Source: a virus | Direction: 5' to 3' (one strand) | UHGV virus genome: UHGV-1835124 | DNA length: 10,534 nt | Part shown: in pieces, positions 1 through 10,534 of the stretch | How the letters are laid out: the number at the start of each line of letters is the position of its first letter | Position numbering within the stretch: the stretch's first letter is position 1 | Translations under genes and position numbers: made by a program | The notes under the pieces: generated by a model | Told to the model about the DNA's origin: nothing | Databases searched by the model: none | The model's input: only the letters and a program-made list of their open reading frames with translations

Positions 1-112
1 GGTGTTTTATCCTTTCAAATGGTTTTTTATTATATCTGTGTTCATAATCTCCCGCAATTGCTCCGCACATGATTTTGCGGCAAAAGGCAAAACCGTTCTT
101 CCGATAAGGGAG

Positions 113-967
113 CTACAGCGTTTTAAGTTTTTCCAATCGCAACAGAATATCGTTAAAGCTTATAATTCTGAAATCTGCACTGCCGAATTTCGGTGCGGGA
201 CTGCAAAAAATCGCATCTTCGGCTTTTTTCGCTTCGACGAGCAATTTATCATTGCCGGAAGCTGCGGCAATTTCTTTCAGTGTGTCCAGCGTGTCAGGGG
301 CACCGTTAATCAGAGCGGTAATAGCGGCCTGTACAAACGCAGTGGTCGCAATCCGCGTGGTGTTATTTCCTGCGGCAGGCGTCGGCGCTTTTGGTTCTCC
401 GGTAAATGTCGGATTATGTTTCTGTGCATACTGGGTATGAGGATCCTGTGCGGCAATGTGGTTTCTCATCTGGTCATCCACATACAGCCTTAATTCCAGG
501 ACTTCATCATCCACGTATTTACGGGTCGCCAGTACCACCGACGGGTCGATTTTCAGCGTAATAGCTTCGGTATTCGTGACAACCAGAATCATGCGGATAG
601 TCTGGGTACGACCGCTGCCTTCCTGCAACTGCGGTTTGTACGTTTCCGGGCAGTTCGCCACCGCAATGAGTACGCCTTCATCATCATAAAGCCCAATCTC
701 ACGGATCCAGAATCCGCCCTCGTTCTCAGGGATGATTTGCTCCGCAATAATCTGGCTCTGGTTGTTCGGGTCAACACTCAGAAGATTCAGCGGCGCGATG
801 CGTTTCTGGTTAATCAGTTTTGTCTGTGCCGGGTCTGGTGTCGGCAAGACACCATTCGCATCACCAACGGCCATTTGCGTCAGATTCAGCTTACTGCCGA
901 GCATCGTCGCGTTAGCCAGCCGTGCCGCGCCCTGATTAGTCAGAATGGCGTAGTATTTCACTGTCAT
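113..967 (-). CDS. H: Tail fibre protein, N-terminal portion only (284 aa; P2 gpH is about 670 aa); likely truncated or recombinant
   Basis: ORF translation begins MTVKYYAILTNQGAARLANA and contains GGFWIREIGLYDDEGVLIAVAN and NTTRIATTAFVQAAITALINGAPDTLDTLKEIAAASGND, motifs I recognise from the conserved N-terminal domain of P2/Mu/P1-type tail fibres. ATGA start/stop overlap with upstream I at 964-967. Stop TAG at 113-115. The last ~45 codons lie in AT-rich DNA and lack tail-fibre character. Confidence 0.75.
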   Translation of the reverse strand: MTVKYYAILTNQGAARLANATMLGSKLNLTQMAVGDANGVLPTPDPAQTKLINQKRIAPLNLLSVDPNNQSQIIAEQIIPENEGGFWIREIGLYDDEGVLIAVANCPETYKPQLQEGSGRTQTIRMILVVTNTEAITLKIDPSVVLATRKYVDDEVLELRLYVDDQMRNHIAAQDPHTQYAQKHNPTFTGEPKAPTPAAGNNTTRIATTAFVQAAITALINGAPDTLDTLKEIAAASGNDKLLVEAKKAEDAIFCSPAPKFGSADFRIISFNDILLRLEKLKTL

Positions 968-1575
968 GCGTTTACTCTCAGGTTATCAATTAAATGAATG
1001 GCCGAGGCCGGGAAATAATCCCCTCCGACAATAATGGCCTCCGGGGTGTAGGGATAAACCGTCAGGGCGTCACCGTGATAGCATCCCGCACCGGCAAAAA
1101 TGTTGCCGTTTGTACTTAAACTGATAGCCAGTCCCGTCAGATGGCGGCTTGCCGGTTTTGCATCAGCAACGAGGCGCTCCAGCTCCTGATACATTTCTTC
1201 GGTAATACCCTGCTCAAGCACGCCAACAACGATGCGGAACGTCCCCGGCTCCTCGTTGAGCTGCCACCACTCCCTCACCTCAATCAGATAGCCGAGCGGC
1301 TCCACCACACGCCGGATTGCGCCTATAGTGCCCTTATGGCAGTGAATGAAATACGCATCGCGGATAACAGCGCGTTTTGTCGCTTCCGGCCACTTATCAT
1401 CCCAGCGGTCAACCGAAAATGACCACGCCAGCCACGGCAGCAGATTTGCCGGACAGGTATCCGGGTTCCACAGCTCACGAATACTGACCGGCGTTTTTTC
1501 AATTTCCGCACAGGCTTTTGCGGCGGCAACTTCAAGCGGTGATGAGCCGGTCGGCAGCAGTCGCGAATCACTCAT
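964..1575 (-). CDS. I: Baseplate assembly protein I
   Basis: 203-aa ORF beginning MSDSRLLPTGSSPLEV; 8-nt overlap with J stop (GGATGAGTGA context); synteny J-I-H as in P2. Recognised from memory as gpI-like; the length is slightly longer than I recall for P2 gpI. Confidence 0.85.
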   Translation of the reverse strand: MSDSRLLPTGSSPLEVAAAKACAEIEKTPVSIRELWNPDTCPANLLPWLAWSFSVDRWDDKWPEATKRAVIRDAYFIHCHKGTIGAIRRVVEPLGYLIEVREWWQLNEEPGTFRIVVGVLEQGITEEMYQELERLVADAKPASRHLTGLAISLSTNGNIFAGAGCYHGDALTVYPYTPEAIIVGGDYFPASAIHLIDNLRVNA

Positions 1576-2476
1576 CCGAGCCTCCGGTCACGACGCGGTA
1601 TTCGGTACAGAAAGACGCCTGCGTACTGTTGAGCACGATGTCAGCCAGCGGTGCAGCCAGTTCGACACGCTGCACGCCTTCCACATGCAAAGCGGCATAA
1701 ATGGCAGACAGACGGATGTCGCGCCCCAGCCGGTGCTGTGCCGTGATATACGCTTCCAGCTTTTTCACAGCGGCAGCGCGGATGGGTTCGCTTTCGGGAC
1801 CAGGGTAAAGGTAAAGCGTGGCGTTTATCTGGTATTCAACAATGGCGGCAGACTGCACGGTCACGCGGTCGGCCACCGGCCTGACGTCCTCGCCATTAAG
1901 GGCGTTACGCACCACGGCCAGCAGGTCTTCGGATGCGACGCCGTTATTTTCACGTGACAGCACAGAGATGGTGACGCAGGCCGGAGACGGACTGGTGACA
2001 GAAATATCCGCGACACGCCCGTCGGCACTGCGACCATGATACTGATAGGCTCCCACCGACCCGGCGACGCTTAAGCCCTCAAACGCCTGCTGAATACGCA
2101 GACGATAATCGGTGTCAGACTCCATCACTGCCGGTGTCGGCGGGATGGTCGAATCATCTGCCGGGGTGATAATCAGGCGCGTGGTGTTGTAATTGGCACC
2201 AATCACATCAAGGTCATTACCGGCGGCACAGGCCAGCATTACCGCCCGTGCGGCCTCATTCACACGCTGACGCCAGATAAGCTCACGATAAGCATTTTCC
2301 TCCAGCAGTTTGACGAGAGGCTCGGATTCCAGCGTCAGGGTACGGGCAACCGCCTCCTGCTGGTCTTCCGGGTAAAGGGAAATCAGTGTCGCCTTGCGTT
2401 CGGCAAGAATGGTTTCAAAGTCCAGCTCCTCGACCACATCCGGTGCAGGTAGCTGGTTCAGGTCGATAATCGGCAT
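1568..2476 (-). CDS. J: Baseplate assembly protein J (gp6-like wedge protein)
   Basis: 302-aa ORF beginning MPIIDLNQLPAPDVVEELDFETILAERK; length and sequence match my memory of P2 gpJ; synteny W-J-I. Confidence 0.9.
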   Translation of the reverse strand: MPIIDLNQLPAPDVVEELDFETILAERKATLISLYPEDQQEAVARTLTLESEPLVKLLEENAYRELIWRQRVNEAARAVMLACAAGNDLDVIGANYNTTRLIITPADDSTIPPTPAVMESDTDYRLRIQQAFEGLSVAGSVGAYQYHGRSADGRVADISVTSPSPACVTISVLSRENNGVASEDLLAVVRNALNGEDVRPVADRVTVQSAAIVEYQINATLYLYPGPESEPIRAAAVKKLEAYITAQHRLGRDIRLSAIYAALHVEGVQRVELAAPLADIVLNSTQASFCTEYRVVTGGSDE

Positions 2477-2480
2477 GGTT

Positions 2481-2828
2481 TCAACTCACAGGGATGGTTA
2501 ACGAAAGTGGCTGGCCGGTGTCGTTGTGCTGGCCGGTCAAAGTGACAGTCATTCGCCCGTCAAAACTGCGCGCCGTGGTGACGGATGACAGGGTGACGCG
2601 GGGTTCCCATTTCAGCACTGCCATGTAACAGGCGACCTTAATCTGCAACTCAAGCGCCGGGGTCTGCGGCTGGTCAATCATTGATGCCAGCAACGAGCCG
2701 TAATCACGACGCATCACCCGTGAGCCGACCGGTGTGCGCAGGATATCGCCGATACTCTGGCTGATATGCTCAAGGTCAGTGACAGTCAGGCCATCACTGC
2801 GATTCATTCCGAGATAACGCGCTGTCAT
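2481..2828 (-). CDS. W: Baseplate protein W (gp25-like)
   Basis: 115-aa ORF beginning MTARYLGMNRSDGLTVTDLEHISQSIGDILRTPVGSRVMRRDYGS; same length as P2 gpW; 4-nt overlap with V stop. Confidence 0.9.
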   Translation of the reverse strand: MTARYLGMNRSDGLTVTDLEHISQSIGDILRTPVGSRVMRRDYGSLLASMIDQPQTPALELQIKVACYMAVLKWEPRVTLSSVTTARSFDGRMTVTLTGQHNDTGQPLSLTIPVS

Positions 2829-3460
2829 AGAGGACTCCCGGTTGTGCCGCCGCTGTCGCCGGGGTGTTTATGGGTATGCAGCACCTTACCGTTTGATGAG
2901 AGTTCACCACCGGTGTGTTCAATGTTGCCGCGCATCGTCCCACCCTTCTGCACTTCCAGCGTGCCGGTAGTCAGTTTGTTAGTGCAGACCACCTCCGGTG
3001 TGTCCAGGGTGATGCGGGTTGACGCTTTCACCATGACCACCGGCACCGTGGCGGTAACAGAATCAGAAGCCGTCACGCTGGCCGTTTTAATTCCGCTTAC
3101 CGTGAGTGCACTGGTTTCGGGTTCATACTCAATCACCGCCCCGTCAGGGAAACGGATATGCAGGGCATCCGCCGACGCAGACGGCGCGGGGTTATCGCCG
3201 GAATAAATCCCCGGCAGAACGAACGCCGTGTCGAGTTCACCGCCCACGGCCAGAATCAGCACCTGCTCCCCCACGGAAGGTGCCCACCATGTGCGCGAAC
3301 GCCCGGCGCGATGGGTCAGCCACTGAAGCCAGTCAGTGCACATGCCGCCGGTCTGCACACGGCAGCGACCGGCGTTAAGGTCGGTTTCGACGACAAGGCC
3401 GGTGCGGATCATGTTGCGCAGTGCGCGCGCGATTTCCTGAATATTTGCGAGAGTGTTCAT
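2825..3460 (-). CDS. V: Baseplate spike / tail tip protein V
   Basis: 211-aa ORF beginning MNTLANIQEIARALRNMIRTGLVVETDLNAGRCRVQTGG; same length as P2 gpV; first gene after the S-V intergenic hairpin. Confidence 0.9.
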   Translation of the reverse strand: MNTLANIQEIARALRNMIRTGLVVETDLNAGRCRVQTGGMCTDWLQWLTHRAGRSRTWWAPSVGEQVLILAVGGELDTAFVLPGIYSGDNPAPSASADALHIRFPDGAVIEYEPETSALTVSGIKTASVTASDSVTATVPVVMVKASTRITLDTPEVVCTNKLTTGTLEVQKGGTMRGNIEHTGGELSSNGKVLHTHKHPGDSGGTTGSPL

Positions 3461-3471
3461 AACGGGAAGGA

Positions 3472-3495
3472 TGCCGCCGGGTCATACCGGCGGCA
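3472..3495 (-). terminator. GC-rich stem-loop between S and V; candidate operon-boundary terminator or RNA structure
   Basis: Perfect inverted repeat TGCCGCCGG (3472-3480) / CCGGCGGCA (3487-3495) around a 6-nt loop GTCATA. It lies in the 66-bp S-V gap, the only substantial gap inside the tail gene series. The downstream U-tract on the minus strand is weak (UCCUUCCCGUU). Confidence 0.35.
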
Positions 3496-3526
3496 ATGTG
3501 ACGATGAGGTGTCGGGAATGGCACAA

Positions 3527-3979
3527 CTAACGGTCGAGGTGAGCCAGGATAATCTCTTCAATCATCTGCACATCCTCACCGGTAAAGCCGAGCAGAGGAC
3601 GCGCCGGATAATCAATTTTCTTACCGTCTTTTCGGTTTTCTTCCGACAGACCGAACTGATGCACACTGGCAATTTTCGGCGACTTCCCGCCGTAAAACTC
3701 CATTGATGCCTGTTCCGGGCTGGCGCGGATATGCAAAAAACGACTGGTGATAAGTTTCGCAAACATTTTTCGCTTAACACGACCAGTCTTTTTTCTGGCG
3801 CTCTGCTGCTGGCGTGGCGCGTAGGGTGTGCCGTCCGGGGCTTTCTGTGCCATCACCCGGCGCTGCTGACTCTGCCGCAGACGTTTCGCCAGTTCGGCAC
3901 TCAGTCGCCGACGCCCTGACGGTGACAGCGATTCAATCAGTCCGGTCAGCCGGTCTTCAAAACGCTTAAACTCATTCAT
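3527..3979 (-). CDS. S: Tail completion protein S
   Basis: 150-aa ORF beginning MNEFKRFEDRLTGLIESLSPSGRRRLSAELAKRLRQSQQ; same length as P2 gpS; 8-nt overlap with R. Confidence 0.9.
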   Translation of the reverse strand: MNEFKRFEDRLTGLIESLSPSGRRRLSAELAKRLRQSQQRRVMAQKAPDGTPYAPRQQQSARKKTGRVKRKMFAKLITSRFLHIRASPEQASMEFYGGKSPKIASVHQFGLSEENRKDGKKIDYPARPLLGFTGEDVQMIEEIILAHLDR

Positions 3980-4439
3980 CCCACTTGCTCACCAGTTCGC
4001 CATTGATATAAAGCTCCACCGGGCGGGTGACCGGCTCCGGCGGCGTGGGTTCCGGGATATTCTTCACATGCAGTGCGCCGTCCACCTCACTGACCAGCGT
4101 GCGCTCGGTCAGCATCAGGCTGATGCTGATATCAAAGCTGCTGTCATTGTTGATGTCTGCATAAAACGTGAAGCCCTTTTTCTGGCCTGCGTCGGTGGTC
4201 ATGATGTCGGGCTGATTTTCCCGCAGCCACGCCAGCACCGGCACGATGAGCAGGTCAAAATCACCGGTAAAGTCGGTCACAATGACATTGAGCGTGTAAC
4301 GCTTTTCGAATGACAGCGACGTCGCCAGCGTGGAGGCAATACTCCCGTTATCCACGAATATCCGCAGCATCTCGGGACTGGTTTTCAGCACCGTGACGGC
4401 ATCAGTCAGCGCCCTGCGCAGGCTGTCGGGTTTGAGCAT
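3972..4439 (-). CDS. R: Tail completion protein R
   Basis: 155-aa ORF beginning MLKPDSLRRALTDAVTVLKTSPEMLRIFVDNGS; same length as P2 gpR; lies immediately downstream of the lysB/lysC pair. Confidence 0.9.
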   Translation of the reverse strand: MLKPDSLRRALTDAVTVLKTSPEMLRIFVDNGSIASTLATSLSFEKRYTLNVIVTDFTGDFDLLIVPVLAWLRENQPDIMTTDAGQKKGFTFYADINNDSSFDISISLMLTERTLVSEVDGALHVKNIPEPTPPEPVTRPVELYINGELVSKWDE

Positions 4440-4692
4440 CGTTTTCGTCCTGACAGTGTTTAATCATTTTTACCTGGCTGGCACAGCGTGCCAGCGCGTT
4501 CTCAAGCTGTCGGATATCGGCACTTAAATCGCCGTTCGTCTCCGGGTCACTGCCCGGCATCGGGCAAAGGCTCACTTTCGGGCAGGCGTTGGCGACAATC
4601 ACTGGCGTCAGTGCAGGCGGGGCGCTGGTGCAACCGGCGCACAGCATCAGGCAGGTCAGCGCCGTACCAGCGGCGAAAATCTTCGTTTTCAT
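4402..4692 (-). CDS. lysC: Outer-membrane lipoprotein spanin (Rz1-like, o-spanin) LysC
   Basis: 96-aa ORF in a different frame, overlapping the 3' half of lysB and the start of R. N-terminus MKTKIFAAGTALTCLMLCAGCTSAPP has a signal peptide and a lipobox-like LCAGC cysteine. GAGG Shine-Dalgarno about 9 nt upstream of the ATG at 4690-4692. Pro-rich mature region typical of Rz1-type o-spanins. Confidence 0.8.
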   Translation of the reverse strand: MKTKIFAAGTALTCLMLCAGCTSAPPALTPVIVANACPKVSLCPMPGSDPETNGDLSADIRQLENALARCASQVKMIKHCQDENDAQTRQPAQGAD

Positions 4693-4972
4693 TCAGTAAC
4701 CTCGTGATGGTTTTCTCGCGCTGTGCTTCACGCTTCGCCGCGTTCTCCAGTTCCTGACGCAGTGCCACCTGCGACAGCTCGTTTTTGTCTGCTCTGGCGA
4801 GGGCAACATGAAGCTGATTTTTCAGCATGGTGATGGTCGTCTGCTGCCCGTTGGCGACGTTGTTCGCCCTGTCCAGCGAGGTGCGCAGGCTGGCGTTTTC
4901 ATGCTTCTCCAGAAACAGACCGGCCACCGCCAGTGATAACAACACAACCAGCACAATCATCAGCTTTGACAT
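4547..4972 (-). CDS. lysB: Inner-membrane spanin (Rz-like, i-spanin) LysB
   Basis: 141-aa ORF beginning MSKLMIVLVVLLSLAVAGLFLEK (N-terminal transmembrane helix) followed by a charged coiled-coil-like region; contains lysC in an alternate frame; matches my memory of P2 LysB. Confidence 0.88.
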   Translation of the reverse strand: MSKLMIVLVVLLSLAVAGLFLEKHENASLRTSLDRANNVANGQQTTITMLKNQLHVALARADKNELSQVALRQELENAAKREAQREKTITRLLNENEDFRRWYGADLPDAVRRLHQRPACTDASDCRQRLPESEPLPDAGQ

Positions 4973-5385
4973 GGTTCCCGCCCCTCAAAACGCTGACGAC
5001 AGGCCGTGCGTATCAACCGGAAGAACACCGACGCCACGAGGTAAATCAGCGCGGTAAAAATCCACCCGGCAGCGACCAGCGAGATAAACGTCGCCACCAT
5101 CACCACCAGAGCCGCCGCCCGTCTGCGCCACGGCACCGGCTGCAAAAACAGCGACGTGACAATCTTCACGGCCAGCGATTCCGGCGGCAGCTCCCGTCCG
5201 TAGCGTTCCAGCACATACTCCGTGGCATACACGCCGACACCACTGGCAACCACACAGATAACCGTCGCCAGAATCGCCCAGGCAGCGACAAAATTGACGG
5301 CCACGCTCTGCGGGTAAATCAGGGACAGTGCCAGCATCAGCGCCAGCGACACGTTCAGCATCAGTGAAAGGGATAATTTCTTCAT
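4960..5385 (-). CDS. lysA: Lysis-timing membrane protein LysA
   Basis: 141-aa ORF beginning MKKLSLSLMLNVSLALMLALSLIYPQ; hydrophobic, multi-pass appearance; GGAG Shine-Dalgarno upstream; position between K and lysB as in P2. Confidence 0.85.
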   Translation of the reverse strand: MKKLSLSLMLNVSLALMLALSLIYPQSVAVNFVAAWAILATVICVVASGVGVYATEYVLERYGRELPPESLAVKIVTSLFLQPVPWRRRAAALVVMVATFISLVAAGWIFTALIYLVASVFFRLIRTACRQRFEGREPCQS

Positions 5386-5399
5386 GGTGTTTACTCCGT

Positions 5400-5897
5400 T
5401 TAAGCCGGTACGCCGCCGGCGGTACGCCAGACGGTGACCAGTTTTTCCAGTGAATGCTCACGCTGACCGTAACCGGCACCCGGCAGGGACGCCCAGATAT
5501 TGCGACAGCGTGAAATGGCGCGCTCAATGCGTCCCGCCCGGATGTCATCCAGTGCACCGCGTTCGCGGATCAACTGAATGGCAAGTCTGTCCTGTGACAA
5601 CGGACTGAAATCCGGCAGGGCAAGCTGTTTGCGGTAATGCGGCCAGAACAGGTAAAGCTGCTGATAGCGACCGGAGGCCGTGGATTTTTCACCGCGACGG
5701 TTAAACACCTTCGCCGGTCGGCCATGCGCGAACGGGTGGTCACTGTAGTCGGTGAAAATTTCCGGCTTTCCGTCCAGTCCGGTGACTATCACGTCATAGC
5801 CCCGGTTTTTCGTCAGCGGATGATTCGCCGTCCCTTCGGACACGGCCAGCATGTCGAGAAAGGCGGCGATATTCTGGTGCGTGTTAATTACCGGCAT
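5400..5897 (-). CDS. K: Endolysin (phage lysozyme) K
   Basis: 165-aa ORF beginning MPVINTHQNIAAFLDMLAVSEGTANHPLTKNRGYDVIVTG; same length as P2 gpK; directly follows holin Y with a 1-nt TAATG stop/start overlap. Confidence 0.92.
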   Translation of the reverse strand: MPVINTHQNIAAFLDMLAVSEGTANHPLTKNRGYDVIVTGLDGKPEIFTDYSDHPFAHGRPAKVFNRRGEKSTASGRYQQLYLFWPHYRKQLALPDFSPLSQDRLAIQLIRERGALDDIRAGRIERAISRCRNIWASLPGAGYGQREHSLEKLVTVWRTAGGVPA

Positions 5898-6178
5898 TAC
5901 GGTTTCCCCCTGCCCTTAAAGCGGCGCTGAATGGCAATCTCAATCACCTGATAACCGGCGATACCCAGCATGGAGCCGATGCCGCACACCGCAGGCAGTG
6001 ACAGGTCAGGAAACTGCACCAGAACAACACCGGCAACCATCGAGACAAAACCACCGAGCAACATGCGCCCGATAAACAGACGCGGGGTGATGGGTTCACC
6101 ACCGGCAAGCACCTTGCCGACAACAATCAACACCCCAATCATGAAAAGCGACAGGACGCTTTTTTCTTCTGCTGTCAT
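5897..6178 (-). CDS. Y: Holin Y
   Basis: 93-aa ORF beginning MTAEEKSVLSLFMIGVLIVVGKVLAGG; small membrane protein with hydrophobic segments and a charged C-terminus (RRFKGRGKP); same length as P2 gpY. Confidence 0.9.
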   Translation of the reverse strand: MTAEEKSVLSLFMIGVLIVVGKVLAGGEPITPRLFIGRMLLGGFVSMVAGVVLVQFPDLSLPAVCGIGSMLGIAGYQVIEIAIQRRFKGRGKP

Positions 6179-6181
6179 GCG

Positions 6182-6385
6182 TTACTCCCACAGATTGACA
6201 GTTTCAGCCACGGGCGCGGTCTGAACGTCGGGCAGTTCGACGGCGGTGCCGTGTGGCAGCACCGCACCCAGTTCAGCCAGTCCCGGATTTGCGGCGAGCA
6301 CGGTCTCAACCACGCCCTCAGTGCGCCCGTAATACCGGACACAAATGGCGTCGAGCGTGTCGCCCTGTAGCGCAAAGGTCTTCAT
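6182..6385 (-). CDS. X: Tail protein X
   Basis: 67-aa product from the internal ATG at 6383-6385 (MKTFALQGDTLDAICVRYYGRTEGVVETV); the track ORF 6182..6454 is a 5' in-frame extension. Start overlaps the L stop as ATGA, and the length matches P2 gpX. Confidence 0.88.
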   Translation of the reverse strand: MKTFALQGDTLDAICVRYYGRTEGVVETVLAANPGLAELGAVLPHGTAVELPDVQTAPVAETVNLWE

Positions 6386-6894
6386 CAGATTTGACTCACG
6401 ATGCAGCGTGGCTTGTCCTGGATACGCGCCACCGCCCAGCGCATATCCCGCCACAGCTCATCAATGGTGCTGTCAATGCTGTCAGCCTTCTTGTCGCCTT
6501 TCGCACTGGCATCCACGCCGCGGTAACGCTCATAAAGCGACGCGGTCGCCATCGCACACACGGCGCGCTCGTAGTAAAAAACTTTGATGCTTTCACCGTC
6601 GATGTCGTCCGCCGGGACGTCCGCCAGACGCGTAAAACCGGCGGCAATTTTCTGTTCGCGGTACTCGTACAGCTCCGCATTCGTCTCCGCCATGCCTGAC
6701 TTGATGGCCTCTCGCAGACGGGCGGGGGCGACGGTCTGCTCAAGGCGCATACGTTCCCGGACGCGCTTCGGGTCGATATCGGGAAAAAAGAACGTGTTTT
6801 TAATCACCGGCTCGTCGCCAGCCGGTTGCGGGATGACCACCGTACCCTCACCGGACACGGGAGCCTCCTTTCGCGGAATAATCAGCGTCATCAT
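6385..6894 (-). CDS. L: Head completion / stabilisation protein L
   Basis: 169-aa product starting at the MMTLIIPRKEAPVSGEGTVVIPQ double-Met (ATG at 6892-6894) with a GAGG Shine-Dalgarno about 7 nt upstream; the track ORF 6385..6954 is a 5' extension; length matches P2 gpL. Confidence 0.88.
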   Translation of the reverse strand: MMTLIIPRKEAPVSGEGTVVIPQPAGDEPVIKNTFFFPDIDPKRVRERMRLEQTVAPARLREAIKSGMAETNAELYEYREQKIAAGFTRLADVPADDIDGESIKVFYYERAVCAMATASLYERYRGVDASAKGDKKADSIDSTIDELWRDMRWAVARIQDKPRCIVSQI

Positions 6895-6993
6895 GACTAC
6901 CTCTGAAAAGTCGGGCGGTGGACGCCGGTGCAGTGTCAGGTGATTCACCCTCACTGACCGGCGTGCCGCCCTGGCGCGGGGCGCATTCGGTTG

Positions 6994-7737
6994 TTAACTG
7001 GCTTTCTTTTTCGGGCGTCCACGTTTTGCCGGTGTCACGCTCCGGGTCTTACGCGGGGCGCGGGTGGCCGCTTTTGGCTGCGGCTCCGGCTTCGGTTTCA
7101 GCTCCCGCTCCAGTCGTTCAATCTCTTTTTTGACGCCTGCCTGACAGTCGAGCTGTGTCGCACGTTGCAGGTGAGCCAGCGCACCGGCGGCATCACCAGC
7201 GTCACGCAGAAACAGACCGGTGATTTTGTGCAGCTTTGCGCGCACTTCATCAGGCATGTCAGCCGTGGCGGTCAGTTCAAGGGTGTCCGTCAGCAGGCGG
7301 GGATCCACAGACTCACCGGCAGCGTGAGCGCGCATGGCCGCAAGCGCCACCTCCTCGGTGAACATATACGGCGGGGTGCGGCGGTGTTTACCCGGCATGG
7401 TCAGACCGTACTTCAGGGCATAACGGGCAATCTCCAGCGCACCGGCAATATCGCCGGTATCCAGACGCCACAGCATGACCGTCATCAGAATGTCATCCTG
7501 TGCACCTTTGCCCTGCTCCAGCACGCCGTTCACCCACGGCAACCAGAACGGCAGCAGTTCGCGTTTTTTCGCGGCCTTCAGCTCTTTTGAATAAATCGCT
7601 TTCAGTGTGCGCTGGTCTGCGGCGAGCTTAACCAGCATCTGCTCATAGACAGTTGCATGTCGCAGCGGGGCGGCTTCCCGCTGCGCGGTCATCGCTGCCG
7701 AGACCCGCATCATGTGGCGCTGTGCGGGACTCGTCAT
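6994..7737 (-). CDS. M: Terminase small (endonuclease) subunit M
   Basis: 247-aa ORF beginning MTSPAQRHMMRVSAAMTAQREAAPLRHATVYEQMLVKL with a basic C-terminal tail (PAKRGRPKKKAS); same length as P2 gpM; follows N with a 3-nt gap. Confidence 0.9.
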   Translation of the reverse strand: MTSPAQRHMMRVSAAMTAQREAAPLRHATVYEQMLVKLAADQRTLKAIYSKELKAAKKRELLPFWLPWVNGVLEQGKGAQDDILMTVMLWRLDTGDIAGALEIARYALKYGLTMPGKHRRTPPYMFTEEVALAAMRAHAAGESVDPRLLTDTLELTATADMPDEVRAKLHKITGLFLRDAGDAAGALAHLQRATQLDCQAGVKKEIERLERELKPKPEPQPKAATRAPRKTRSVTPAKRGRPKKKAS

Positions 7738-7740
7738 CGG

Positions 7741-8814
7741 TTACGCTCCCGGCTCTGCGGTCGCCTTAGCCGGTGTGGAGAAATCACCGACCTTAATTTT
7801 TTCCACCAGACAACCGGCGGCGTAGTCTTCCACCACGTAATCAATGTTCATTGACTCGTAGTTCTCCACGCGGTCGAGTTTCGGGTTTTCCTCAATCACG
7901 CGGCGATGGCTGTCATCCATGTAGTAGATGGACAGGTTTTCCAGCTTCGTGATGAGCATCGCATCCGCCGGGAAGTACGGGACGCGTACCGCCGGCAGGT
8001 TACCGATGCGTTTCTGGCTGATGATGACGTCAGCGGCCAGCATTTCGCTGTTGTCCTGCTCCTTGTTGACGATGGGGAAATACTTGTCCGCCAGTAGCTG
8101 ACGCCCCACAATCACCACAAGGTCAGGGTCTTCCTGATACCACGGCTCAATCAGGTTGTTGGTCGCATCCATCACCAGTGCATCGAGGCTGGCATAATCA
8201 CCGCCCTTACCCACGCGGATAACCTCAGAGGTGGTGCGGCCTTCCTCGTCAGTGACCTTGCTCATCACGCGCGCCGGGGCTTCATTGCGGTATTTCTGCA
8301 GCCAGCCGACCGCCACATCCTGCAGCATCGGATTGCTGCTGCGGTCAGAGGTTTCGGCACGCCTCACGCCGTTAAAACCGGCCATGATTAAATCAAGGGA
8401 CTGGCGTTTGATAATGGCGTTACGGACACGGAGCTGGAAATCCTGATAACGCGCCCACAGGTCCAGCGTTTTGTAGCGGATATAAAAATCGAAGTTAATC
8501 TGGTCGCATTCGTACTTGTTTGACGCCAGCTTCGAGAAGTCCTTCGGCTGACGCTCGGTGCCACCGGCGGTGTCGGTGGTGCTGGCGATGGAGCCGGTGA
8601 CACCGATGCCAATTTTTTCCCCTTTCATTTCGCTGACCGGCACAATGTTGATGCGGGTCAGAAAGTCAGAGGACTCCTGCATGGTGTTCATCAGGGTCTG
8701 GGTGACCGACGGTTCAACGGTGAATTTTTTCGACACATCACCGGCGTCGATGCCGTTCAGTTCGGCAACACGGGACAGGTAGGCATTAAATTTAAAGCGG
8801 GTTTCCTGGCGCAT
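7741..8814 (-). CDS. N: Major capsid protein N
   Basis: 357-aa ORF beginning MRQETRFKFNAYLSRVAELNGIDAGDVSKKFTVEPSVTQTL; same length as P2 gpN; AGGA Shine-Dalgarno 7-8 nt upstream of the ATG. Confidence 0.93.
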   Translation of the reverse strand: MRQETRFKFNAYLSRVAELNGIDAGDVSKKFTVEPSVTQTLMNTMQESSDFLTRINIVPVSEMKGEKIGIGVTGSIASTTDTAGGTERQPKDFSKLASNKYECDQINFDFYIRYKTLDLWARYQDFQLRVRNAIIKRQSLDLIMAGFNGVRRAETSDRSSNPMLQDVAVGWLQKYRNEAPARVMSKVTDEEGRTTSEVIRVGKGGDYASLDALVMDATNNLIEPWYQEDPDLVVIVGRQLLADKYFPIVNKEQDNSEMLAADVIISQKRIGNLPAVRVPYFPADAMLITKLENLSIYYMDDSHRRVIEENPKLDRVENYESMNIDYVVEDYAAGCLVEKIKVGDFSTPAKATAEPGA

Positions 8815-8872
8815 AGTTTTTCCTGAAATTAAGGGTTAATCGTGAAGGTTTTCCCGGACTGACTGACGCCGG

Positions 8873-9727
8873 TCAGCAGTTCGTCATCAGGGCGTCACCG
8901 CCACCACCGGTGGCCTTGCTGCGGCGCTGCTGGGTCAGACTTTCGGTGTGGTCGAGACTGTTTTTCAGGCGGGTGAATGCCTGGCTGGTTTCATCCGCCC
9001 TGTCAGTCACATCCTGCTTAAGTGCGGAAAAAGCGGTTTCCATCTCAGCGAGGCGCTGCTCAGTGGCGCTCAGTTTTTCCTGCACATGTTCAGCAACAGC
9101 GGTCACCGCTTCATGCACGTCATTCAGACGGGCGTCATCGCTGGCCTGTTTGCGGCCAAAAATGGACTTCACCTTTTCGGTCAGGGCGGTGAACACGGTT
9201 TCAGGCAGGTCTTCAAATTCCAGCTCAACGGGCGTTGCCACTGAAATCAGGTTTTCAGGGCTTAATTTGAAGCGGTTCAGGGGGTTGTGTTTTGCCGTGC
9301 GGCAGAATTCCAGGTATTCCGTGCCGAGGCTTGCCGGGTCATCGGTGACGGCCAGACCCACCAGATAACATTTGCCTGTATTGGCAAAGTTCGGCTGAAT
9401 TTCCATTGAGGTATAGACCTTCTGCGCGGCCTTGTTCATCGCGATAAGGTCATCGGTCGGGGTGATTTTCGCAAACAGCGCCCATTTGCCTTTCAGCGCC
9501 GAATCATCGTCAATCTTTTCGGCCTTCAGTTCGACCACATCGCCATAACGCTTAAAAATACCGTCAGGCAGGATGCCGCGCAGATGTTCCAGGTTAATGC
9601 GGCAACCATAGACTCGCGGGTCAAAGGTTTCGGCCATTTCCTGAATATCCTGCGCACTGATGACACGCCCGTCACAGGTGTCACCCTCAACGCCGATACG
9701 AAAGAATTTTGAGACTTTTTTTGCCAT
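8873..9727 (-). CDS. O: Capsid scaffolding protein O
   Basis: 284-aa product from the ATG at 9725-9727 (MAKKVSKFFRIGVEGDTCDGRVISAQDIQEMAETFDPRVYG), preceded by an AGGA Shine-Dalgarno; the track ORF 8873..9793 carries a 22-codon 5' extension; length matches P2 gpO. Confidence 0.92.
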   Translation of the reverse strand: MAKKVSKFFRIGVEGDTCDGRVISAQDIQEMAETFDPRVYGCRINLEHLRGILPDGIFKRYGDVVELKAEKIDDDSALKGKWALFAKITPTDDLIAMNKAAQKVYTSMEIQPNFANTGKCYLVGLAVTDDPASLGTEYLEFCRTAKHNPLNRFKLSPENLISVATPVELEFEDLPETVFTALTEKVKSIFGRKQASDDARLNDVHEAVTAVAEHVQEKLSATEQRLAEMETAFSALKQDVTDRADETSQAFTRLKNSLDHTESLTQQRRSKATGGGGDALMTNC

Positions 9728-9900
9728 TGTCAGGAGTCCTGAATAGTGATTAGAGGAGTCACATGTCGGCATCAGTTTCCCGACGATGCGCATCCTCCGC
9801 CATCAGTCCCGGATGGCTTATCACTGACACAACAGCACCTTAGCGAATCGCGGGGCGCGACTCAGTAGCCTTGCCGTGTATTCATCACGGCGAGGTATTC
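9728..9900. promoter_or_regulatory. Divergent late-promoter control region between O (minus) and P (plus)
   Basis: 173-bp non-coding gap between divergent start codons. In P2 the equivalent interval carries the Ogr-activated promoters for the P-Q and O-N-M-L operons. Short palindromes are present (ACATGT at 9761-9766; GATGCGCATC at 9785-9794). I could not locate an exact TGT-N12-ACA activator motif by eye. Confidence 0.55.
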
Positions 9901-10521
9901 ATGACCATCACCACAGACACCACTCTTTTACACGACCCGCGTCGTCAGGCGGCGCTGCTGTACTGGCAGGGATTTTCCGTGCCGCAGATTGCCGCCATGT
10001 TGCAGATGAAACGCCCGACGGTGCAGAGCTGGAAACAGCGCGACGGCTGGGACAGCGTTGCCCCCATCAGCCGTGTCGAAATGAGTCTGGAAGCGCGGCT
10101 GACCCAGCTCATCATCAAACCGCAGAAAACCGGCGGTGACTTCAAGGAAATTGACCTGCTGGGACGCCAGATTGAACGACTGGCACGGGTAAACCGCTAC
10201 AGCCAGACCGGCAACGAGGCAGACCTTAATCCGAACGTCGCTAACCGCAACAAAGGCGGGCGGCGCAAACCGAAAAAGAATTTTTTCAGTGACGAGGCCA
10301 TCGAAAAGCTGGAGCAGATTTTCTTTGAGCAGTCTTTCGACTATCAGTTGCACTGGTATCGCGCCGGGCTTGAGCACCGCATCCGCGATATCCTGAAATC
10401 CCGCCAGATTGGCGCGACGTTCTATTTTTCCCGCGAGGCGTTGTTTCGCTTCGAGAATATCGTCAATAGATACCGGAAGATCGTAGGTAATATGCATTAT
10501 GGCCTCTGTATCTTAATATAA
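9901..10521 (+). CDS. P: Terminase large (ATPase) subunit P, 5' portion; reading frame ends after 207 codons (P2 gpP is about 590 aa), so truncated or interrupted
   Basis: ATG at 9901 preceded by GAGG (9891-9894); translation [44 protein letters not shown] matches my memory of the P2 gpP N-terminus. Divergent from O as in P2. In-frame TAA at 10519-10521 lies in an AT-rich stretch starting near 10440. Confidence 0.8.
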
Positions 10522-10534
10522 AGTCAATGACCGG

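Follow-up and report, generated by a model that had tools for sequence, protein, structure and literature searches.

Near the start of the 10,534-nt stretch of DNA analysed here (the window), a minus-strand open reading frame (ORF) of 284 amino acids at 113-967 begins as a tail-fibre gene of the P2 type and ends in DNA of another kind. The first-pass annotation of this locus had read the switch as a recombination or deletion junction and had offered three biological meanings for it: a defective prophage, a distal fibre that is encoded separately, or a host-range cassette swap. An assembly artefact was listed as something to check. The question is where the foreign 3' end came from and how it was joined to gene H. 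The results below indicate that the shortened fibre is very probably an inter-genome misassembly or a library chimera, and that read support across its joins is presumably absent.

The fibre part of the 284-aa reading frame

Residues 1-150 of the 284-aa product match the Pfam family PF12571, the N-terminal domain of phage tail-collar fibres (E = 9.4e-63). Residues 1-236 are collinear and near-identical with the gpH of E. coli P2-like phages or prophages, ungapped in the alignment with five relatives and gapped in the alignment with P2 H. This confirms the tail-fibre assignment of the N-terminal part. The alignment with the six H proteins stops at residue 236, and the distal receptor-binding homology is absent beyond this residue. 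The motif that the first-pass annotation had placed at about residue 300 of 670 in P2, LNTLNELAAALGND, does lie at residue 298 of the 669-aa P2 H.

At the DNA level, the identity to 963 E. coli genomes and to nine Escherichia and Salmonella phages ends at window position 260/261. Residues 1-229 come from P2-type gpH alone, the codons of residues 230-236 (LKEIAAA) form a shared 21-mer, and a small Bacillota ORF contributes its C-terminus as residues 237-284. The reported switch to foreign DNA is thus real, and its place was corrected: the breakpoint is not after ...SGND, which is already foreign, but falls within 260-280, that is, in the LKEIAAA codons. The closest relatives carry AAAINNDPKF where the 284-aa ORF has SGND, so the likeness of SGND to the LGND of P2 is coincidental.

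The GC drop reported at the foreign 3' end was reproduced. The GC content is 41.5% at 113-259, 52.7% in the rest of H and 57.2% in the whole P2 part. The lowest value among about 1,000 sliding 147-nt segments of the P2 part is 46.9%, and none comes down to 41.5%. The T6 run at 224-229 is as reported; the A7 run given at 204-210 is actually an A6 run at 205-210.

In the relatives, H is complete at 394-501 aa, or 669 aa in P2, and is followed by tail-fibre assembly (tfa) genes. Leftward extension of the sequence, which had been proposed as a check for a downstream distal fibre and a G/Tfa chaperone, gave a 302-aa Bacillota protein and a ylbJ-like protein instead. No fibre-assembly (G/Tfa) gene lies directly downstream of the 284-aa ORF in the full contig.

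Composition of the contig

The source contig was identified by an exact look-up of the 284-aa product. It is ENA ERZ773192 NODE_3173_length_12607_cov_2.713432, with a SPAdes-style name, and it is the only contig on which this exact protein sequence was found. The window corresponds, in reverse complement, to nucleotides 1-10,534 of NODE_3173; the other 2,073 nt lie outside it. The mean k-mer coverage of the contig is about 2.7, a figure read from the contig name. Judged from the alignments, NODE_3173 is a mosaic of K. pneumoniae DNA, an E. coli P2-like prophage and Bacillota chromosome. The parts and the two reading frames across the joins are as follows (window coordinates).

1-259, minus strand: Bacillota chromosomal DNA, with the 3' end of a small hypothetical ORF at 113-259 and a spacer at 1-112
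113-967, minus strand: 284-aa fusion ORF, very probably an artefactual reading frame, made of the gpH 5' part and the C-terminus of the Bacillota small ORF
260-280: left junction 21-mer CTGAAAGAAATTGCCGCAGCT (minus strand), common to the P2-like H and the native Bacillota small ORF in a three-way alignment
281-967, minus strand: genuine 5' part of the P2-like H (PF12571 and the start of the shaft), with 99.8% DNA identity to the H of E. coli 6EVA
281-10422: late region of an E. coli P2-like prophage, from the gpP 5' part to the H 5' part, as a single collinear megablast piece
9871-10521, plus strand: second fusion ORF of 216 aa, very probably artefactual as well, running from the N-terminus of the terminase ATPase gpP (PF06056) into antisense tdcB
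10423-10440: right junction 18-mer TATTTTTCCCGCGAGGCG, common to the P2 gpP gene and K. pneumoniae tdcB in a three-way alignment
10441-10534, minus strand: first codons of K. pneumoniae tdcB (ATG at 10497-10495) and its upstream region, up to the contig end

Window 261-10449 aligns with E. coli ARS-C301 as one collinear piece with 98.6% identity (megablast). In 1,461 E. coli genomes the match covers 80% or more of the window, and more than 1,400 E. coli genomes carry the prophage region uninterrupted. The late genes on the minus strand are O, N, M, L, X, holin, endolysin, LysA/B/C, R, S, V, W, J, I and the beginning of H; on the plus strand, gene P for the terminase ATPase is likewise represented by its beginning (9871-10521).

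As a separate observation, the lysC lipoprotein gene (4402-4692) partly overlaps lysB (4547-4972) in a different frame, with lysA, endolysin and holin upstream. This arrangement of lysis genes at 4402-4972 is usual for P2, and nothing odd was seen in it.

Source of the foreign 3' end

A sensitive blastn search with window 1-265 came back empty from 5,426 E. coli genomes, from 50,697 phage records and from 72,556 plasmids. These empty searches exclude an IS element, another prophage and the E. coli chromosome as the source of the foreign 3' end. The last 48 residues of the 284-aa product are 98-100% identical to unannotated metagenome proteins of 68-83 aa (P0001, P0002). Window 1-259 together with the outer 2,073 nt is 97.5-99.4% identical over the overlap to the loci L002 and L004 and to 28 of the 29 loci L012-L040. 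The one exception among the 29, L035, has 91.8% identity to the Bacillota part of the contig.

The 2,073 nt outside the window are in perfect synteny with this Bacillota locus at 98% identity. The neighbourhood of the locus contains an rsmD-like gene, coaD, the small ORF, a gene of about 300 aa, a ylbJ-like gene, a ylbM-like nucleotidyltransferase gene, ackA, yceD/DUF177 and rpmF. Such an arrangement is typical in Bacillota, as seen in the ylbH-coaD-ylbJ...ylbM-ylbN-rpmF region of B. subtilis. The overall GC content of the Bacillota contigs is about 50%. By homology and gene order, the left flank is the chromosome of a spore-forming, Clostridia-like gut Bacillota.

The genes that follow H in the contig are the 302-aa gene, which starts just outside the window, and the gene of a ylbJ-like sporulation membrane protein. 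Neither the 302-aa nor the 328-aa product encoded downstream matches a fibre or Tfa family, and the 302-aa protein has no Pfam family of any kind. The small ORF between coaD and the ylbJ-like gene also matches no Pfam family.

The small ORF itself resembles the N-terminus of the adjoining 302-aa gene (IDELIELIDNS...FGSAD(R/F)RI...), as seen at window 113-259, in L003 at 10535-11443 and in L014. Indels and frame changes distinguish its alleles (proteins P0001-P0005), whose products are 50-83 aa long or longer.

All three biological meanings proposed for the junction fail, because the replacing DNA is Bacillota chromosome, has no fibre or chaperone likeness, and is absent from the enterobacterial and phage collections searched. 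The foreign DNA is neither prophage nor enterobacterial host DNA, as a defective prophage would have it. The genes that follow are neither fibre nor chaperone, which speaks against a separately encoded distal fibre. In place of a host-range cassette, the 3' end of a Bacillota chromosomal small ORF was found, and then the 302-aa and ylbJ-like genes. What holds of the proposed recombination or deletion junction is that a real gpH 5' part abuts foreign DNA.

The left junction

The common allele of the native small ORF reads ...FNILKEIAAASGNDKLLVEAKK..., and it shares the 21-mer at 260-280 with the P2-like H in the same frame. Since the 21-mer stands in the same frame in gpH (LKEIAAA) and in ...NILKEIAAASGND..., the translation crosses from gpH into the small ORF and ends at the small-ORF stop. 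No other exact match between the two parent sequences is as long: this one measures 20-21 nt, the runner-up 14-15 nt. A shorter junction microhomology of 5-8 nt, obtained from L002 and L004 alone, was dropped because the common native allele shares 21 nt.

A junction-spanning 34-mer was found in 29 other gut-metagenome contigs, some of 130-300 kb and with coverage up to 73x. No P2 DNA was found in these 29 contigs, and all of them are the uninterrupted Bacillota locus. The 29 matches were therefore rejected as proof of a widespread real fusion.

The right junction

The E. coli prophage sequence around the right junction is identical to the window up to 10440, base 10422 excepted. The minus-strand ORF from the ATG at 10497 is the start of the catabolic threonine dehydratase gene (tdcB). 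Its codon-wobble pattern over 16 residues matched only Klebsiella pneumoniae ATCC 13883 among the representative genomes of 185,579 species. Window 10423-10534 is identical to the tdcB region of K. pneumoniae ATCC 13883 at 112 of 112 positions, and the foreign tail at the right contig end has a length of 85-112 nt. The 18-nt run at the junction is the longest exact match between the right-junction parents L006 and L005, the next being 15 nt.

The full-length gpP gene in a relative has 1,773 nt; the P2 sequence in the fused gene P ends at 10440. The false C-terminus of the terminase ORF at 9871-10521 is supplied by the antisense strand of K. pneumoniae tdcB.

A P2 variant with TTG at 10441-10443 would extend the shared run to a 21-mer. 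No such variant was found in the 1,383 E. coli genomes with the gene. The best identity to the TTG test sequence in these genomes is 98%, which corresponds to two mismatches in 99 nt, and the overlap stays at 18 nt.

Base 10422, beside the junction, is C in the window, T in the E. coli prophages and A in K. pneumoniae, and the difference is synonymous in gpP (TTC/TTT). A test sequence with C at 10422 and T at 10441 was unmatched in the 1,383 E. coli genomes. The C at 10422 is either a private variant or an error.

Occurrence of the fusion elsewhere

Neither junction was found in viral contigs. The fusion of H with Bacillota DNA was not found in E. coli genomes, phages, plasmids or viral contigs. 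Both parents occur intact elsewhere, and the fusion was not reproduced in anything that was searched.

Origin of the joins

The contig was most probably formed in the following way. An E. coli P2-like prophage piece of some 10.2 kb, too thinly covered to assemble alone, was joined at one side to the Clostridia-like Bacillota chromosome via a chance identity of 21 nt, and at the other side to about 100 nt of K. pneumoniae tdcB via a chance identity of 18 nt. The joining agent was probably the assembler itself, or a template-switch chimeric read followed by the assembler. In SPAdes and metaSPAdes the smallest default k is 21, the contigs of the small-k rounds feed the later rounds, and gap closing accepts short overlaps. 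A join on a shared 21-mer could survive the rounds from small k to large k if coverage gaps interrupt the true paths. The 18-nt right join more likely came from a template-switch chimeric read or from short-overlap gap closing by the assembler. A pure de Bruijn-graph account fails for the right join because its overlap with every known P2 variant is 18 nt, below k = 21. The right join thus needs a prophage variant outside those seen, short-overlap gap closing, or a chimeric read.

Chance matches of this length are expected. By a simple calculation, a 30-kb prophage and the 10^8-10^9 bp of other DNA that a gut sample may hold should have about 1-10 exact 21-mers in common, and hundreds of 18-mers are expected per 30-kb prophage by the same calculation. 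Chance matches of 18-21 nt are therefore present in every sample. Inter-species translocation is the commonest misassembly class in CAMI benchmark sets, according to a preprint (bioRxiv 10.1101/2021.06.22.449514).

The junction was most probably made by the assembler or in the library, since the joins lie on the longest matches between the parents, the other end of the prophage piece is Klebsiella, and the k-mer coverage is 2.7x. The assembly artefact that the first-pass annotation had listed for checking is thus favoured by the three-genome origin, the junction matches and the coverage. As one form of this artefact, template switching at short homologies during PCR or amplification of the library is a real possibility, though less probable than a purely in-silico misjoin. 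The overlaps of 18 and 21 nt have a primer-like length, the right overlap lies below the smallest SPAdes k, and a short read of typical length would be long enough to hold the whole right tail of 85-112 nt at the contig end. At a k-mer coverage of 2.7, one or two chimeric reads could also bridge the coverage gaps. What speaks against a library chimera is the left overlap, whose 21 nt exactly equal the smallest default k, as suits a join at the graph level.

Microhomology at a junction is also the expected trace of real illegitimate recombination, and this counts against reading the joins as an artefact. The 21-nt match is compatible with a real insertion of a 10-kb P2-like fragment into a gut Bacillota chromosome by short-homology illegitimate recombination, with truncation of H, and 2.3 kb of the contig show the correct Bacillota synteny. 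Such an insertion is nevertheless very unlikely: the other end of the fragment is K. pneumoniae and not Bacillota, the 10 kb upstream of the native small ORF contain no such tdcB sequence, all 29 native loci are without P2 DNA, the coverage is 2.7x, and both junctions lie on the longest chance matches. A variant in which the left junction is genuine, from a very recent inter-phylum transfer, and the Klebsiella end alone is an artefact, is given an equally slight chance. A transfer, if there was any, would have to be very recent, given the 98.6% identity between the fragment and E. coli prophages. The thought of a P2-like prophage of an enterobacterium, E. coli or Klebsiella, that has become defective or been remodelled, with its distal fibre deleted, swapped or separately encoded, has some appeal in that the H genes of the family are mosaic (394-669 aa) and that relatives have an invertase and alternative fibre ends. 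It is extremely improbable, with replacing DNA that is 97.5-99.4% (91.8% for one locus) identical to a Bacillota locus of housekeeping and sporulation genes, with no fibre or Tfa family matched by the two products encoded downstream (302 and 328 aa), and with a flank that is missing from every E. coli genome, phage and plasmid searched.

Comparison with known systems

The preferred reading, an artefact of assembly or library, was compared with inter-genomic misassembly as defined by metaQUAST and discussed for metaSPAdes and metaMIC. As in that class, the flanks of a point in the contig align to different genomes, and the two joins of this low-coverage contig fall on short stretches that the species have in common (PMC5411777; 10.1101/2021.06.22.449514). 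Unlike in that class, the shared runs here are chance matches of 18-21 nt and not conserved genes or mobile elements, and three genomes from two phyla stand within one 12.6-kb contig.

The H part is similar to the gpH of P2 and the Peduoviridae in residues 1-236, in the gene order J-I-H and in its 99.8% DNA identity to an E. coli prophage H; it differs in that the rest of the shaft and the receptor-binding end are missing after LKEIAAA. In most relatives H contains an inverted crossover site of 27 nt, TTCTCGCATACCTTGGTTTGGGAGAAG, and these prophages also have a DNA invertase and, on the other strand, a second fibre end with tfa. Such features were seen in L006 (1037-1063 and 2867-2893), in L001 (6897-7490), and in L007, L009 and L010. 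Together they form an invertible host-range segment of the type known from Mu (Gin/G) and P1 (Cin/C), a true mechanism for replacing the distal fibre. In contrast, NODE_3173 has no crossover site or invertase, and the joined DNA is no fibre cassette. A break at the crossover site of an invertible segment was rejected, since the site would be about 107 nt beyond the breakpoint; an invertible segment does not explain the break.

Meaning of the finding

The junction is genuine in the sequence record, yet most likely it is no biological feature: no truncated fibre, no host-range swap and no defective prophage. NODE_3173 illustrates clearly how three genomes can end up in one chimeric contig of a public metagenome assembly, and its two plausible-looking fusion proteins, the 284-aa "tail fibre" and the 216-aa "terminase", are already in protein collections. 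Where the base composition switches within a gene close to the end of a low-coverage contig, the sequence should be compared with both possible parents before recombination is proposed. The shortened fibre, in all likelihood a product of assembly, has no bearing on phage biology. The phage-like part of NODE_3173 should not be given a Bacillota host.
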